Origin: Candidatus Thorarchaeota archaeon
Lineage (GTDB): Archaea > Asgardarchaeota > Thorarchaeia > Thorarchaeales > Thorarchaeaceae
DNA length: 21,476 nt
Assembly (NCBI GenBank): GCA_048882385.1
Contig: JBHLRQ010000051.1
Location: 1-21,476 of the forward strand
Reading direction: 5' to 3'
The notes beneath the pieces were generated by a model, which worked only from the letters and a program-made list of their open reading frames with translations, was not told the origin of the DNA and searched no databases. Shown one piece after another: positions 8,084 to 15,105 of this stretch. Numbering within the stretch: position 1 is the stretch's first letter; each line of letters starts with the position of its first letter. Position numbers and translations under genes: made by a program.

Positions 8084-8114
8084 CAAACTTATAAGAATCA
8101 GTTAACAATTGTTA
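8084..8114 (+). promoter_or_regulatory. Putative archaeal BRE/TATA (CAAA-CTTATAAG) plus 12-bp palindrome TAACAATTGTTA upstream of the tusA operon
   Basis: TTATAA at 8089-8094 preceded by CAAAC, about 35 nt before ATG 8127. Perfect palindrome at 8103-8114. Confidence 0.5.
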
Positions 8115-8126
8115 GTTGTGAATTCC

Positions 8127-8372
8127 ATGGCGGATATGGAACCGGCTGAGAGCCTGGACTGTGTGGGGCTATTCTGCCCGCAACCACTATTCCAGACCCG
8201 AGAAGCAATTGATGAGTTAGAACCTGGCCAAATACTTGAGATGCTGTCTGATGACCCAGCTGCAGAAGAGGACATCAAACGATTCGCAAAACGGACTGGA
8301 CATGAGTTATTGCTCTTCGAGCGTTTGGAAGATGGTGTGCAGAGATTTCTCATAAAGAAAAAGGAGGCGTAA
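8127..8372 (+). CDS. tusA: TusA/SirA family sulfur carrier
   Basis: LDCVGLFCPQP (CPxP motif), LEMLSDDPAAEEDI, about 81 aa. Confidence 0.92.
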   Translation: MADMEPAESLDCVGLFCPQPLFQTREAIDELEPGQILEMLSDDPAAEEDIKRFAKRTGHELLLFERLEDGVQRFLIKKKEA

Positions 8373-8377
8373 GAAAA

Positions 8378-8731
8378 GTGGCAAGCATTTTGTATGTTCA
8401 AACATCAGATGATCCAGAACGCCAATATTCTCCTTTTGTCCTAGCTCAGAGTGCAAAAGCAATGGATATTGAGCCTATGATATACTTCTTAGGACAAGGA
8501 TTGAGAGTATTGCAACCTGGAGCAGCTGAAAAAATCAAACTGGGCACCTTCCCAAGTCTTCAAGAGATGATAAAGAAGACAGTTGAGATGGGTATTCCAA
8601 TTTATGTTTGTGAGGCGTCCAAACAAATGCTGGGCTGGGATAAAGTTGAACTTGACCCAGACCTGAAAATTGTCGGAGCCGCAACACTTAACGACCTTGT
8701 CCTAGAAGCAGACGCGACACAATGGTTCTAG
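8378..8731 (+). CDS. DsrE/DsrF-like sulfur relay protein
   Basis: 117 aa with DsrE-fold pattern: IYFLGQG, GIPIYVCEAS (single Cys), IVGAATL. GGAGG precedes the GTG start. Confidence 0.8.
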   Translation: MASILYVQTSDDPERQYSPFVLAQSAKAMDIEPMIYFLGQGLRVLQPGAAEKIKLGTFPSLQEMIKKTVEMGIPIYVCEASKQMLGWDKVELDPDLKIVGAATLNDLVLEADATQWF

Positions 8732-8748
8732 AACAAGGATGATGAGTA

Positions 8749-9912
8749 ATGAAACAGGTGTATTTAGACTACCACAGTGCCAAACCAGTGGACCCTAGAG
8801 TTATTGATGGAATGACGAAGTATCTCTATGATGCTTTTGGAAATCCCTCCTCTCTACATCAAGTTGGGGATGAAGCCACTGAAGCATTAGAAGAGAGCCG
8901 TAAGACAATTGCCAAGTATATCAATGCCGATGAAGATGAGATTGTATTCACCTCTGGCGCAACAGAATCAATAAACCTAGGAATAATTGGGTATGCTCTA
9001 AGGAACAAAAAGAAGGGCAATCACATTATCATGTCTGAAATCGAACATATCTCAATTCATAATATTGCTAAATATCTTGAACGTGAAGGATTCAAGATAT
9101 CAAAAGTCCCAGTGGACCAATACGGAATGGTTGACATACGAAAAATAGAACGGCGCATCACAGATCAGACAATACTCATCACAGTTGGTATGGCAAGTAA
9201 CGAGATTGGAACTATTCAACCAATCAACGAGATTGGTAAGCTTGCAGCTGACAAGGGTATCACATTTCACACCGATGCTGTAGCCGCTCAAGGACTCCTC
9301 ACGATTGATGTCAAGAAAGACAACATTAACCTAATGGCATTATCATCAAACGATTTCTATGGCCCAAGAGGTGTCGGTGTTCTCTATATGCAGAAAAAGT
9401 ATCGAGTAAATCCGATTATGATTGGTGGAGGACAAGAACGCGGTCTTAGATCAGGAAGTGAAGATATTCCTGGCATTGTAGGTATGAAACTTGCTGTTGA
9501 TATTATGAAGAAAGAGATGAAAACTGAAATAAAACGATTCAGAGGATACCGGGATCGAATGATCGAACAAATTCTCAATGATGTACCAGATAGTCATCTC
9601 AATGGACACCCAACTGAGAGACTAGCAAGTAATGCACATTTCAGATTCGAGGGAATTGAAGGCGAATCGATTCTCCTCTCATTCAAGGATTTAGGCATTT
9701 CAGTGTCAACAGGGTCAGCATGTACATCGAAAACATTGGAACCATCCCACACACTGATTGCGACTGGCCTCTTACATGAAGAAGCTCATGGATCATTACA
9801 GCTCACTACTGGAAGATTCAATACAGAAGACGATATAGATAGAGTGTTGGAAGTCGTGCCGCAAGTCGTTTCGCGACTTCGAGACCTCTCCCCAATTTAC
9901 ACTAAGAAGTGA
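8749..9912 (+). CDS. iscS: IscS/NifS-like class V PLP-fold protein with PLP Lys replaced by Asp (Archaeoglobus IscS type)
   Basis: FGNPSS, FTSGATE, NEIGTIQP, GGGQERGLRSG and STGSACTS (Cys325) are intact. The canonical SxHKxYGPKG reads SSNDFYGPRG (Asp202). Confidence 0.9.
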   Translation: MKQVYLDYHSAKPVDPRVIDGMTKYLYDAFGNPSSLHQVGDEATEALEESRKTIAKYINADEDEIVFTSGATESINLGIIGYALRNKKKGNHIIMSEIEHISIHNIAKYLEREGFKISKVPVDQYGMVDIRKIERRITDQTILITVGMASNEIGTIQPINEIGKLAADKGITFHTDAVAAQGLLTIDVKKDNINLMALSSNDFYGPRGVGVLYMQKKYRVNPIMIGGGQERGLRSGSEDIPGIVGMKLAVDIMKKEMKTEIKRFRGYRDRMIEQILNDVPDSHLNGHPTERLASNAHFRFEGIEGESILLSFKDLGISVSTGSACTSKTLEPSHTLIATGLLHEEAHGSLQLTTGRFNTEDDIDRVLEVVPQVVSRLRDLSPIYTKK

Positions 9913-9919
9913 AAGAAAA

Positions 9920-10699
9920 ATGAAATCAACAAAGTACAGCGAAAAGGTTCTGGATCACTTTCGAAATCCACGAAATGTGGGTACACTGGAAGGAGATGAT
10001 GTTGCAGTTGGCAAAGTAGGAAATCCTACATGCGGCGACATCATGGAGGTCTACATAAGGATTGATGGTGACACCATCACCGATGCAAAATTCAGGACCT
10101 TTGGATGTGGTTCAGCAATTGCGACAACAAGCATGACCACAGAGATGGTCAAGGGGATGTCCCTTGATGAAGCAATGAAACTCACAAGGCAAGATGTTGC
10201 AGAGGAATTAGATGGTCTACCTCCAATAAAGATGCACTGTTCAAACTTGGCAGCTGATGCTCTTCATGAGGCGATTATTAACTTCCGAAAGGGAAGAGGT
10301 GAGCATATTGACGAAGTGGAGATGACATCTATACCGGAACCCGGGTGTGTGGTGGGGCAAGATGAATTTCTCAACAAGGGCGTATGGCTTAGTGTTGAGG
10401 ATCCCAAAGATTTCAAGGACCTTCGTACACTTGTCCTTCACTCAGGTGATGAGTCAGTCCAGATTGCATTGGATTTAACCGAGCAGACAGAACGAGTCAT
10501 ACTTCTTACACCTGAGAAGACAGTGATGACAACTCCTGAGCTTGAAGAAGAGCTAAGTAATTCAAGTGTCAAATTGTTGACAGAGTCACGATTGCTTGAG
10601 ATACGTGGAGAATTTGAAGTTGAGAAAGTTCTCATTTTCAACATTGATGAAGATGAGGAATACGAGCTTTTCGTAGATGCAGTTGTAATAATCGAGTAA
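9920..10699 (+). CDS. iscU: IscU/NifU_N Fe-S scaffold with C-terminal degenerate TrxR-like Rossmann domain
   Basis: YSEKVLDHFRNPRNVG, GNPTCGD, FGCGSAIA and LPPIKMHC; followed by an extra acidic domain of about 115 aa. Confidence 0.9.
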   Translation: MKSTKYSEKVLDHFRNPRNVGTLEGDDVAVGKVGNPTCGDIMEVYIRIDGDTITDAKFRTFGCGSAIATTSMTTEMVKGMSLDEAMKLTRQDVAEELDGLPPIKMHCSNLAADALHEAIINFRKGRGEHIDEVEMTSIPEPGCVVGQDEFLNKGVWLSVEDPKDFKDLRTLVLHSGDESVQIALDLTEQTERVILLTPEKTVMTTPELEEELSNSSVKLLTESRLLEIRGEFEVEKVLIFNIDEDEEYELFVDAVVIIE

Positions 10700-10745
10700 T
10701 TCATCGACAGATACTAATGTGAACATATTTTGAGAATTAGATAAG

Positions 10746-11207
10746 ATGCTCGAAATCAGAAATGCCACTCAGGATGAAATACCTCTACTAAAGCAGATGT
10801 ATATGACTGAGGTTGAAGAACACGAAAAAAGAGCTCAAACTTTTGCTAATGAATTGGTAAATCGATTCAAAACAATGTTGGCGTTCAAAAATGGTAATCT
10901 TTGTGGAACTGCATCGTGGGATATCAGGGGTGGTCTTGATGATGGCGTTGTTGAGATAATTGGCATTGGTGTAAATTCGGATTACCAACGTCAAAAGATC
11001 GCTTCAAGTTTGATTGATTCTGTGACTGATGAAGCGAATCGATACTATTCTGAGGCGGGGTACAAGCTCAGAATAATTATGTTATTCATGGAGAAGGGAA
11101 ACGAAGTAGCTCATAAGTTTTACACATCAGTGGGTTTCGAGGAAGTTGCCTGCATTAATGGACTCTATCCTCATGATGATGGCTCAATATGGATACGTCA
11201 TCTATAA
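10746..11207 (+). CDS. GNAT family N-acetyltransferase
   Basis: IRNAT N-terminus, IGVNSDYQRQKIASSL (motif A), NEVAHKFYTSVGF (motif B). Confidence 0.88.
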   Translation: MLEIRNATQDEIPLLKQMYMTEVEEHEKRAQTFANELVNRFKTMLAFKNGNLCGTASWDIRGGLDDGVVEIIGIGVNSDYQRQKIASSLIDSVTDEANRYYSEAGYKLRIIMLFMEKGNEVAHKFYTSVGFEEVACINGLYPHDDGSIWIRHL

Positions 11208-11261: not shown

Positions 11262-12443
11262 GTGGAAAATCAAGATTTGAAGCTCATCTATCCTGGAAAG
11301 GAACCTCGTGAAAACATCATTTCCTCAAAGAGTTCAACGTTCAGTACGACACTACAGTATGGCGCTACTGAAAGGGACATGTGGGTTAACAGGATTTTCT
11401 GGAGCGACAATCTAAATGTACTCCATTACTTGTTGACTGATTCAGCTATACGAAATGCGATTGATGAATTGGGGGGCATCAAGCTTGTCTATATCGATCC
11501 ACCATTCGGGACAGGGGATATGTATTATTCTCAAGGAAAACTTGCATACTCTGCGGAACTACAAGGACCAGACTACATTGAGTTTGTGAGAAGGCGGTTG
11601 ATTCTATTACATGAGCTACTTGAGGAAGATGGTAGTATCTTTCTCAGAATTGACTATCATTTTGGTCACTATCTAAAGATAATCCTAGACGAGATTTTTG
11701 GACAAAGGAACTTCCGAAATGAGATTGTCATTAACAGACGAAGAAAGAGTGCACAAGAAACAAAGCGCTACAATGTTGCTAATGATGTTCTCCTTTTCTA
11801 TTCCAAGACTGACGATTTCTATTTACAAAAGAAGATTCGGAAAAGACTCTGTACATTCTGCAGCCAAGAGAAAAAACCAGACTGGCATGCCATGATTTCT
11901 TCTGGTGTTAGAAACCCACCTGAAAGAGTGATTCTCGGTGAAACAAGACTACCTCCTAAGAAAATGCATTGGACATATCGACAGGAAAAGATTGACAAGC
12001 TTGAATCAGAGGGCAGACTTAGAATCAACAAGAAGTTGACCTATGTAGATTTGAAGGGGGAACAGGTCAAGGGAATGCCAGAGTATCTCCAATCCGATAA
12101 AGTCCCGGTTGACTCGTTGTGGATTGATTTGAAGGGGTACACTCATCGATGGAAATATCCATCTGAAAATTCAGAGGAACTTCTTGATCGTGTCATTTCT
12201 TCGTCTTCAAGAGAGAAGGATTTAGTTCTTGATGCATTTGCGGGATCAGGAACAACAGGAATAGTATCAGAGAAACTGGGGAGAAATTGGATTCTAATTG
12301 ACTCTTCAGAAATCGCCATTCAGACAATACTCAGGAGATTGTTCAGTATGAAAAAAGGAATAGGAAACAGAGGAAAACTACTTACCCCAAGACCCTTTGT
12401 GCTTCATGAATGTATGAAATCAGTTAGGAAGAAATCTCAATGA
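11262..12443 (+). CDS. Beta-class amino (N6A/N4C) DNA methyltransferase, Mod-like
   Basis: Motif IV YIDPPF precedes motif I VLDAFAGSGTT. Also has FRNEIV and KLGRNWILID. Confidence 0.9.
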   Translation: MENQDLKLIYPGKEPRENIISSKSSTFSTTLQYGATERDMWVNRIFWSDNLNVLHYLLTDSAIRNAIDELGGIKLVYIDPPFGTGDMYYSQGKLAYSAELQGPDYIEFVRRRLILLHELLEEDGSIFLRIDYHFGHYLKIILDEIFGQRNFRNEIVINRRRKSAQETKRYNVANDVLLFYSKTDDFYLQKKIRKRLCTFCSQEKKPDWHAMISSGVRNPPERVILGETRLPPKKMHWTYRQEKIDKLESEGRLRINKKLTYVDLKGEQVKGMPEYLQSDKVPVDSLWIDLKGYTHRWKYPSENSEELLDRVISSSSREKDLVLDAFAGSGTTGIVSEKLGRNWILIDSSEIAIQTILRRLFSMKKGIGNRGKLLTPRPFVLHECMKSVRKKSQ

Positions 12444-13120
12444 GTCAATCAATAGGGACTCTCCAAGAGGGTTCTTTACATTCAAGCATCAAGGAGCTCT
12501 ACACAAAAGGAGGTGCAGAAACGGAGATAGTTGTGGAAGGGTATGTGATTGATGTTGTACGTGATGGACTTCTGATAGAAGTCCAAACTGGGAATTTTGC
12601 GAAAATCAAGTCAAAGATATTATCACTGATCAAGAACCATCGAGTTCGTCTTGTGTACCCAATTCCTAAAGAAAAGTGGATTGTTCGTGAGAGTCCCGAT
12701 GGGCTGAAAGAGCTTAGTCGAAGGAAATCACCTAAGCAAATGGATTTCATTGATTTGTTTGATGAGTTGGTCAGATTTCCAAGTTTTATTGCACACAATA
12801 ACTTCTCTCTGGAAGTGTTACTAATAAAAGAAGAAGAGATTCGTCGTAAGGATGGAAAAGGAAGTTGGAGAAGAAGAGGATGGAGTATTATCGATCGGAA
12901 ATTGATTGATGTTGAAGACAAGCGATTATATGAACAACCATCGGACTTCCTAGAATTCATCCCTGATTCATTGACGAAACCATTCAGAAATTCTGATTTG
13001 GCTGAAGTGTTAGGAATTCATACCAGAATTGTTCAGCGAATGACATACTGTCTTCGTAAGATGGACGCACTCAGAGTTGTTGGCAAAAAGGGAAACGCAC
13101 TACTACTTGATACAATATGA
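12440..13120 (+). CDS. Uncharacterised PD-(D/E)XK-like nuclease fold protein with C-terminal wHTH
   Basis: E..SLH..K helix, IDV...LIEVQT (D...ExQ variant) and a C-terminal FRNSDLAEVLGI..RMTYCLRKM HTH. ATGA overlap with the MTase stop. Confidence 0.65.
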   Translation: MSQSIGTLQEGSLHSSIKELYTKGGAETEIVVEGYVIDVVRDGLLIEVQTGNFAKIKSKILSLIKNHRVRLVYPIPKEKWIVRESPDGLKELSRRKSPKQMDFIDLFDELVRFPSFIAHNNFSLEVLLIKEEEIRRKDGKGSWRRRGWSIIDRKLIDVEDKRLYEQPSDFLEFIPDSLTKPFRNSDLAEVLGIHTRIVQRMTYCLRKMDALRVVGKKGNALLLDTI

Positions 13121-14763: not shown

Positions 14764-15105
14764 TTAGGAGCAGCCATCATTAAAGCAATTTCTTAGAACT
14801 GCATTCATGACAGCACCTCTAGCTACATCCATGTCTGGTAGACCTGCTATGAACTCATCGCACACTCTCATTGCAGGAAGTCCAAGTGGTGCAGGAAGTC
14901 CACAGCCATCATCAAGTCCAGATGAAACATCAACAATTCTGATTGTTTCGGGGGGAAGGCCAAAATCAGAAAGAACATTATACATGATCTCAAGAGCAGC
15001 ATCACAAAGCACACAATGTTCACTAGAGTATACAATTATGCAACTGCATCTTCCACACTCTGTACGTAAAACCTCATATGAAAACTTCTTCAGCGCTTGA
15101 GTCAT
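14764..15105 (-). CDS. Thioredoxin/glutaredoxin-fold protein (CxxC)
   Basis: IIVYSSEHCVLC, IVDV, cis-Pro-like GLPAM and FIAGLP. GGGTGA RBS upstream. Confidence 0.72.
   Translation of the reverse strand: MTQALKKFSYEVLRTECGRCSCIIVYSSEHCVLCDAALEIMYNVLSDFGLPPETIRIVDVSSGLDDGCGLPAPLGLPAMRVCDEFIAGLPDMDVARGAVMNAVLRNCFNDGCS

Follow-up and report, generated by a model that had tools for sequence, protein, structure and literature searches.

The analysed window, a stretch of 21,476 nucleotides (nt) comprising contig JBHLRQ010000051.1 of a Candidatus Thorarchaeota archaeon, contains an operon of four genes, the third of which encodes an IscS-like protein that is probably not a cysteine desulfurase. This gene (iscS*, the product of which will be referred to as the window IscS) specifies a protein of 387 amino acids (aa) that has the fold of the IscS/NifS-type class-V enzymes and in which the Schiff-base lysine is replaced by an aspartate. 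Based upon homology, the conserved nature of the substitutions that accompany this change and the literature on a related protein, we consider it likely, with a probability of about 0.8, that the window IscS is a non-catalytic partner of the scaffold protein IscU, of the type known from Archaeoglobus fulgidus. The features of this gene that are central to the analysis are as follows.

8749..9912, forward strand: iscS*, encoding a protein of 387 aa that has the IscS/NifS-type class-V fold but no Schiff-base lysine (Pfam PF00266 and PDB 4eb5_A)
9283..9285, forward strand: codon GCC of Ala179, in the column of Gln183 of Escherichia coli IscS (column count and HMMER alignment)
9343..9372, forward strand: SSNDFYGPRG, a degenerate SxHK motif, residues 199-208 (translation and HMMER alignment)
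9721..9732, forward strand: Cys325-Thr-Ser-Lys328 on the mobile loop, Cys325 being the retained persulfide/ligand cysteine and Lys328 a clade-specific lysine (column counts)

The reading frame is free of stop codons over all of its 387 codons, and its product covers the whole of the Pfam model PF00266 (Aminotran_5; positions 1-371 of 371) with an E-value of 7.3e-73. When compared by HMMER with the solved structures in the PDB, the top match of the window IscS was A. fulgidus IscS2 (4eb5_A; E 7.6e-134, 449.8 bits, residues 4-385), while E. coli IscS (1p3w) was matched with an E-value of 4.9e-96 and a score of 325.4 bits. In these alignments, the SSND sequence of the window IscS is paired with 'ssnd' of the A. 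fulgidus protein (4eb5, 4eb7 and 4hvk); the corresponding letters are 'ssnk' in the D199K variant of the latter (4r5f) and 'sghk' in E. coli IscS. Because of these alignments to solved IscS structures, D202 (GAT, 9352-9354) is assigned to the column of the Schiff-base lysine, both in relation to the E. coli and to the A. fulgidus protein, and N201 (AAC, 9349-9351) to the column of the histidine that precedes it. The loop GSACTSK, which contains C325 (TGT, 9721-9723), the sole cysteine of the protein, aligns with 'gsacssk' of 4eb5_A. An aspartate at the Schiff-base lysine position and the change of the adjoining histidine to asparagine had been proposed in the original prediction, which was made from the sequence letters, and both are borne out by the translation and the HMMER alignments. 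Of the span 9340..9372 that was given there for the motif, the motif itself is correct and occupies 9343-9372, but the start is not, as 9340 belongs to the codon of L198. Similarly, the N-terminal sequence DYHSAKP, which had been taken as a match to the A. fulgidus clade, does resemble that of A. fulgidus IscS (DYTSAKP), but it is not a characteristic of the clade, since other lysine-less relatives differ at this place.

The scores of the window IscS are below every equivalog cut-off of the NifS/IscS models in NCBIfam (461.1 versus 530.75 for TIGR03402, 403.8 versus 548 for NF010611 and 400.6 versus 643.2 for TIGR02006). Of the characteristics by which an active type I cysteine desulfurase can be recognised, the lysine of SxHK, the histidine before it, the equivalent of Gln183 and a score above an NCBIfam equivalog cut-off are all lacking; of those of the A. 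fulgidus IscS2 type, a full-length type I fold, SSND, the loop cysteine and an adjacent IscU with its cluster residues are present. In the accessible passages of two articles (PMC8918507, PMC7585200), A. fulgidus IscS, which carries Asp199 in place of the lysine, is described as having pyridoxamine 5'-phosphate (PMP) bound and as showing no cysteine desulfurase activity; its D199K variant is described as still binding PMP, with pyridoxal 5'-phosphate (PLP) not regained, and in the structure of IscS with IscU D35A, IscS gives a cysteine ligand to the [2Fe-2S] cluster. These passages, together with the ranking of the PDB matches, uphold the A. fulgidus precedent (SSND, no desulfurase activity and a cysteine ligand to the cluster) on which the original prediction had relied. 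Its expectation that automated annotation would label such a protein as a desulfurase is also correct, as 'cysteine desulfurase (family protein/NifS)' is the name under which the homologues appear in the sources, and metabolic reconstructions of Asgard archaea may thus credit the proteins bearing this label with an activity that they probably lack. Due to the replacement of the lysine by Asp202, of the histidine by Asn201 and of the glutamine by Ala179, the window IscS would be unable to form an internal PLP aldimine. The operon context (tusA, dsrE and an extended IscU), the third of these pocket substitutions and the absence of SufB/D from the genome, all of which are described below, go beyond what had been noted earlier.

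The gene for the window IscS is the third of four genes on the same strand, which are separated by intergenic gaps of 5, 17 and 7 nt. The other three genes, and the distinct C-terminal part of the last of them, are as follows.

8127..8372, forward strand: tusA, the first gene of the operon, encoding an 81-aa sulfur-carrier protein with Cys17 in CPQP (Pfam PF01206, E 1.4e-24, 86.2 bits)
8378..8731, forward strand: dsrE-like gene, 117 aa, GTG start, with a single Cys78 at the conserved cysteine position of the family (Pfam PF02635, E 1.7e-15)
9920..10699, forward strand: iscU-X, 259 aa, consisting of a U-type scaffold (residues 5-124), a disordered linker and a C-terminal domain (PF01592, E 5.3e-48)
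10349..10690, forward strand: residues 144-257 of IscU-X, a C-terminal domain with similarity to the thioredoxin-reductase NADPH domain (TIGR01292, PDB 2zbw)

Both of the genes expected for a TusA/DsrE sulfur relay are found in this operon, its TusA having a cysteine within CPxP and its DsrE-family protein the cysteine that is typical of that family. Cys17, Pro18 and Pro20 of TusA are invariant in all 31 aligned cassette TusA sequences. Among solved structures, the DsrE-like protein is most similar to 3mc3 ('DsrE/DsrF-like family protein', E 5.9e-10), the cysteines of the two being aligned, and this residue is kept in 21 of 21 homologues among the matches listed. The cassette is flanked by an amidase gene and a GNAT gene; the latter, an acetyltransferase gene at 10746-11207, starts 46 nt past iscU on the same strand. 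A TATA-like sequence, TTATAAG, was read by eye ahead of tusA (8089-8095).

The distribution of these genes was examined in two samples, the locus counts of which are given without a statistical test and come from related genomes that are not independent of one another. A scan of species genomes yielded at least 80 loci, of which, among the matches listed, 11 contain SSND or SSWD and 69 are lysine-bearing. Among these matches, a TusA open reading frame (ORF) is located directly upstream in all 11 lysine-less loci and in none of the 69 lysine-bearing ones, and a DsrE-like ORF accompanies 8 of the 11 and none of the 69. The 11 lysine-less loci belong to Promethearchaeota, Thorarchaeota, Bathyarchaeia and Methanomethyliaceae, and to metagenome-assembled genomes (MAGs) that are labelled as Actinomycetota and Deltaproteobacteria. 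In the second sample, comprised of 30 relatives within the phylum, SSND was observed at 22 of 29 loci and tusA was upstream in 17 of these 22, four of the five loci without it ending at a contig edge. Neither tusA nor dsrE was found in this sample at the three loci with a lysine motif, nor at two loci (L119 and L120) where no motif was recognised. In most of the complete loci, iscU lies directly downstream of the lysine-less iscS.

The cluster residues of IscU-X (Cys38, Asp40, Cys63, His106 and Cys107) are invariant, and its scaffold part is matched by the solved structures 7c8m (E 1.1e-50) and 4eb5_C (E 1.2e-45). The tail resembles thioredoxin reductase in its sequence (TIGR01292, E 1.5e-11, model positions 117-232; PDB 2zbw, E 1.8e-7); it contains no CxxC, and its glycine-rich loop is degenerate and reads HSGDES. 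In the predicted structure of this protein, the blocks from residue 151 onwards have predicted local distance difference test (pLDDT) values of 80-93, and the linker block 131-140 has an average of 37. The tail is conserved at 21 other loci, each of them beside an SSND IscS. As a short IscU is found next to a lysine-less IscS at six loci (L012, L023, L111, L114, L115 and L121), the tail is not obligatory. Judging by eye, only one of the 22 long IscU sequences in the alignment seems to lack a particular cysteine of the linker, Cys142 (10343-10345, within PEPGC).

The genome from which the window is derived (3.70 Mb in 256 contigs, 95.3% complete) gave no match to the SUFBD_core model, for which matches were obtained in all 14 control genomes, including methanogens. 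Similarly, no A-type carrier and no Nfu domain was found in this genome, and its sole NifU_N match is IscU-X. Radical-SAM proteins are encoded in it. Among 18 genomes of the same genus, SufB/D is lacking from all 10 in which the corresponding IscS shows 82-86% identity to the query, and their cassettes include dsrE wherever the locus can be seen; all seven in which this identity is 76-79% possess SufB/D and have no dsrE in the cassette. As this split tracks relatedness, a real loss of SufB/D is favoured over incomplete assembly. The genome also encodes a second lysine-less class-V paralogue, which is SufS-like (type II) and is located on contig C1 (82156-83409; L092:4962-6215, reverse strand). 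In this protein, 'fsanvglmgppg' corresponds to 'fsghkgpmgptg' of 5b7s, His-Lys being replaced by Asn-Val with retention of the loop cysteine, and its gene is solitary, between a GlmS-like gene and a gene for a nucleotidyltransferase-domain protein.

As regards the function of the cassette, the window IscS would most likely be a fixed partner of the IscU scaffold, the gene for which begins 7 nt further on. Cys325 would then serve the [2Fe-2S] cluster under assembly either as a ligand or as an arm that delivers sulfur, or in both capacities. In such a case the sulfur would not come from its own chemistry. It could be passed on as a persulfide via Cys78 of the DsrE-like protein and Cys17 of TusA to either Cys325 or IscU, these carriers presumably being charged by the two stand-alone SufS-like desulfurases of the genome or by environmental reduced sulfur. 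For this relay, which is suggested by the synteny and by the conserved cysteines, we would put the chances at slightly less than even. The complex of two copies of the window IscS with TusA was also predicted, and the three runs gave 0.49, 0.24 and 0.02, the median being below the 0.32 mark and the controls not folded, so that this prediction weighs neither for nor against binding. It is further possible, but this is more in the nature of a tentative proposal, that the four-gene cassette is the only iron-sulfur (Fe-S) assembly machine of this lineage and has no desulfurase step of its own, with sulfur moving from DsrE Cys78 to TusA Cys17, then to Cys325 of IscS and finally to IscU, so that IscS would be both a structural subunit of the scaffold and an arm that receives sulfur. 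If true, the relay within the cassette reverses the textbook direction, which is from IscS to TusA.

A different source of sulfur is envisaged if free sulfide reacts directly on IscU, and TusA and the DsrE-like protein do something else. In the accessible part of a 2022 review (PMC8918507), the source of the sulfur in A. fulgidus [2Fe-2S] assembly is presented as an open question and a proposal involving free sulfide is cited. We consider the direct use of sulfide to be a serious alternative for the window as well, to be taken into account at odds well short of even.

A number of other observations count against the view that the window IscS is a partner of IscU without catalytic activity, to which sulfur is supplied through the relay. 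The direction assigned to this relay is read from the order of the genes, and the sulfur flow in E. coli is opposite to it, as IscS charges TusA and then the DsrE homologue TusD. The cassette occurs without dsrE in the seven same-genus genomes noted above and in several other lineages, and hence can do without DsrE. At L121, an SSND locus that represents a second copy within its genome, there is space upstream but no tusA. In addition, the window's genome contains a second TusA and a second DsrE-like gene, which are divergent and about 500 nt apart (C142:3670-4860, L123), as well as a row of three DsrE-DsrE-DsrH-like (DsrEFH-like) genes beside a radical-SAM gene (C195:1609-2648, L124). Since its two stand-alone SufS-like genes (on contigs C27 and C9, with no SufE, SufU or SufBC beside them) retain the lysine, cysteine could still be the ultimate source of sulfur. 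The inactivity of the window IscS is carried over from the A. fulgidus homologue, which lies outside our trees and is linked to the window protein by the PDB ranking. Lastly, with a pocket that is otherwise conserved and with Lys328, the window IscS may be capable of some cofactor-dependent chemistry.

The cofactor pocket was compared in three sets of sequences, viz. 14 diverse lysine-less proteins, 119 close homologues of the window IscS and 133 lysine-bearing proteins, the last of which have lysine in the Schiff-base column by definition (133 of 133). This column contains aspartate in 11 of the 14 diverse lysine-less proteins and in 119 of 119 close homologues. In the histidine column, asparagine is present in 11 of 14 and 119 of 119, respectively, as compared with histidine in 113 of the 133 lysine-bearing sequences. 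The column of Gln183, a residue that contacts the cofactor in E. coli IscS (the equivalences of the pocket residues being those of the HMMER alignment), contains alanine in 12 of 14 and 119 of 119 lysine-less sequences versus glutamine in 128 of 133 lysine-bearing ones. The lysine, histidine and glutamine columns are thus replaced together in the lysine-less rows. The residues T72, H100, D176 and S199 (E. coli Thr76, His104, Asp180 and Ser203) are kept in all 14 and all 119 lysine-less sequences, and the loop cysteine in 13 of 14 and 119 of 119. Lys328, three residues past the loop cysteine, is a lysine in 11 of 14 and 119 of 119 lysine-less sequences versus 13 of 133 lysine-bearing ones, and A. 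fulgidus IscS also has a lysine here. The adjoining Thr329 (Lys328-Thr329 being 9730-9735) behaves in a similar manner, both residues being almost fixed within the lysine-less clade and uncommon outside of it. The residue R356 was considered as a substrate-binding arginine but was dropped, as the lysine-bearing sequences vary at this column (arginine in 67 and lysine in 32 of 133). Judging from these residues, the pocket of the window IscS appears to be remodelled rather than abandoned, which fits with the PMP binding reported for the A. fulgidus protein, the reason for which is called elusive in the accessible part of the 2022 review (PMC8918507).

The retained residues are also of interest in relation to the possibility that the window IscS is still an enzyme, which would form a persulfide from cysteine, or carry out another PLP/PMP reaction, without an internal aldimine, by means of a non-covalently bound cofactor and some other base such as Lys328. 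The invariance of T72, H100, D176 and S199 in both lysine-less sets, the frequency of Lys328 in these sets in comparison with the lysine-bearing one, and the fact that A. fulgidus IscS still binds PMP (PMC8918507) are in favour of such an activity. However, the A. fulgidus protein, which likewise has SSND and a loop with 'sacssk', is reported to be inactive and its D199K variant does not regain PLP, as far as these properties are covered in the accessible passages (PMC8918507, PMC7585200), and in the window IscS and its relatives three pocket residues are replaced together. We therefore regard a residual enzymatic activity as very unlikely.

It may also be asked whether the cassette serves mainly a purpose other than Fe-S assembly, with the window IscS as the docking hub of a thiolation relay of TusA and DsrE, in which sulfur is destined for transfer RNA (tRNA) or a cofactor and IscU is a bystander. 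The gene content of the cassette mirrors the E. coli relay of IscS, TusA and TusD, and the TusA link at all 11 lysine-less loci among the matches listed is in accordance with this possibility. In contrast, iscU directly follows iscS in most complete loci, and IscU-X is the sole U-type scaffold of a genome in which no SufB/D, A-type carrier or Nfu was found, and which yet encodes radical-SAM Fe-S proteins. A separate DsrE-DsrF-DsrH-like operon is, moreover, present for relay functions. A role of this kind thus has only a slender chance of being correct, and a partnership of the window IscS with IscU is preferred.

The authenticity of the SSND sequence is indicated by several kinds of observations. 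SSND and STGSAC are both present in 120 of 120 sequences, consisting of the query and, among the matches listed, 119 homologues that are 75-99% identical to it and are named in their sources as Thorarchaeota, Sifarchaeia, Odinarchaeota or Promethearchaeota. Across 32 SSND loci, the asparagine codon is AAC in 16 and AAT in 16, and the aspartate codon is GAC in 16 and GAT in 16. As both codons drift synonymously while the amino acids stay the same, Asn201 and Asp202 are inferred to be under purifying selection. Assembled contigs of sequencing runs from three studies span 9340-9372 with no listed difference. One of them (X7, record 9) covers 8100-9417 with no other letters, and the others cover 8100-9827 (X5, record 6) and 8100-10700 (X4, record 3); the X5 and X4 contigs each differ from the window at three sites (9529, 9565 and 9624), and a relationship of X4 to the sample from which the window comes is possible. 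In an RNA library (X20, a sediment metatranscriptome), two contigs of 151 nt match 9430-9713 of iscS without differences, the motif being outside of this region; they provide a weak hint of expression, as carry-over of DNA is possible. In the original prediction, Cys325 and the rest of the frame had been considered intact, with no general decay, and a sequencing error had been considered unlikely; the first of these statements is confirmed by the 387 stop-free codons, the conserved SSND and STGSAC and the codon turnover, and the second by the agreement of the contigs over the motif. With the 120 of 120 conservation, the synonymous turnover, the intact frame and the contigs from three studies all opposed to it, the RNA-library contigs adding their weak hint, and nothing found in its favour, the possibility that the substitution arose as an artefact of assembly or sequencing, or belongs to a decaying gene or pseudogene, is ruled out for practical purposes.

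To examine the phylogenetic distribution of the lysine loss, the query was considered together with the best 150 representatives of clusters formed at 50% identity, of which 133 rows contain the lysine and 18 do not. The trees were based upon 78 rows, viz. 17 full-length lysine-less proteins (including the query), the top 45 of the full-length representatives that have the lysine, and 16 proteins from the loci; a fragment of 288 aa (P0195) was left out. In the FastTree analysis, the window protein was part of a group of 14 rows, all of them lysine-less, with a support of 100. In the IQ-TREE analysis (quick search, LG+G4), an all-lysine-less group of 15 rows was observed with an SH-like approximate likelihood ratio test (SH-aLRT) value of 98, and within it an inner group of 8 rows with a value of 100. 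The closest row to the window protein is from a Thorarchaeota contig and shows 72% identity. In both trees there is also a second, separate group, in which the lysine is lacking from 7 of 8 rows, in addition to scattered single lysine-less rows. A single loss of the lysine is rejected, as the well-supported branches require at least three to four changes of state.

Some of the cassette genes are found on contigs of bacterial MAGs, up to 305 kb in length, three of which carry Actinomycetes/Actinobacteria labels (L009, L016 and L018) and one a Deltaproteobacteria label (L022). The tusA, dsrE, iscS and long iscU genes are all intact in L009 and L016, in L018 the reading frames of dsrE and iscU are disrupted, and L022 ends inside iscS. 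The IscS proteins of L009 and L016, the two that were included in the tree, nest within the Asgard clade beside Thorarchaeota rows. Because of this nesting, a transfer of the whole cassette between domains is suggested, unless the MAG bins are wrong.

Elsewhere in the window, a gene for an N6/N4 DNA methylase (11262-12443; PF01555, E 1e-39) overlaps by 4 nt with an ORF of 226 aa (12440-13120), for which no Pfam or NCBIfam match was obtained, and the two may constitute a restriction-modification pair. An ORF of 113 aa on the reverse strand (14764-15105) encodes several cysteines, including a CVLC pair, and it also gave no Pfam or NCBIfam match.

The window provides a natural test case for the question raised by the A. 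fulgidus protein, viz. how a [2Fe-2S] cluster is assembled when IscS cannot desulfurate cysteine. In this case, the lysine-less IscS occurs together with the only recognisable scaffold of the genome and with two cysteine-bearing sulfur carriers that are co-encoded in all or almost all cases, and SufB/D is lacking both from this genome and from its 10 closest sampled relatives. As only four small proteins are involved, the question of the sulfur source is directly testable. Our literature search, to which the paper defining the MIS system was external, yielded no report that links TusA/DsrE with a lysine-less IscS-IscU pair or that describes an Asgard IscS of this kind.

Of the known systems, the TusA/DsrE relays (TusA-TusBCD of E. 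coli and DsrE3A-TusA of sulfur oxidisers) share with the cassette the CPxP cysteine of TusA and the conserved cysteine of the DsrE family. The known relays serve in tRNA thiolation or in dissimilatory sulfur oxidation. E. coli IscS (1P3W; 3LVL with IscU and 3LVJ with TusA) is similar to the window IscS in its type I fold, its mobile-loop cysteine and its partners of the IscU and TusA families, but it has SGHK with Lys206 as well as Gln183, where the window protein has Asn-Asp and Ala179. Pairs of archaeal IscS-like and IscU-like proteins are referred to as the little-studied MIS system in the accessible part of a 2026 review (PMC13066941), and the arrangement in the window, in which an archaeal IscS-like gene adjoins an IscU-like one and HscAB, Fdx and IscA are absent, matches this description. 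A 2026 paper, in the part of it that is accessible, associates the eukaryotic desulfurase NFS1 with Asgard. For Methanosarcina acetivorans, the accessible passages report an IscS1 (of the MIS, MisS/MisU) without the catalytic lysine, for which a mode of action like that of A. fulgidus IscS was proposed (PMC7585200). By this description it is, like the window IscS, an archaeal IscS paralogue adjoining IscU; unlike the window's genome, that of M. acetivorans further encodes an active IscS2 in which the lysine is present, together with SufBC-type systems (PMC7585200, PMC13066941). The closest likeness is to A. fulgidus IscS2 (4EB5, 4EB7 and 4HVK; D199K, 4R5F), with which the window IscS shares SSND, a loop cysteine followed by xxK, and an IscU partner. 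The two differ in that the A. fulgidus IscU (chain 4eb5_C) is of 153 aa, whereas that of the window is of 259 aa with a thioredoxin-reductase-like tail, and in that the window gene is from a Thorarchaeota-type Asgard archaeon whose genome has no match for SufB/D. The window IscS is therefore of the Asp-for-Lys kind that is already known from A. fulgidus IscS2, to which its operon context, with tusA and dsrE ahead of the gene, adds.

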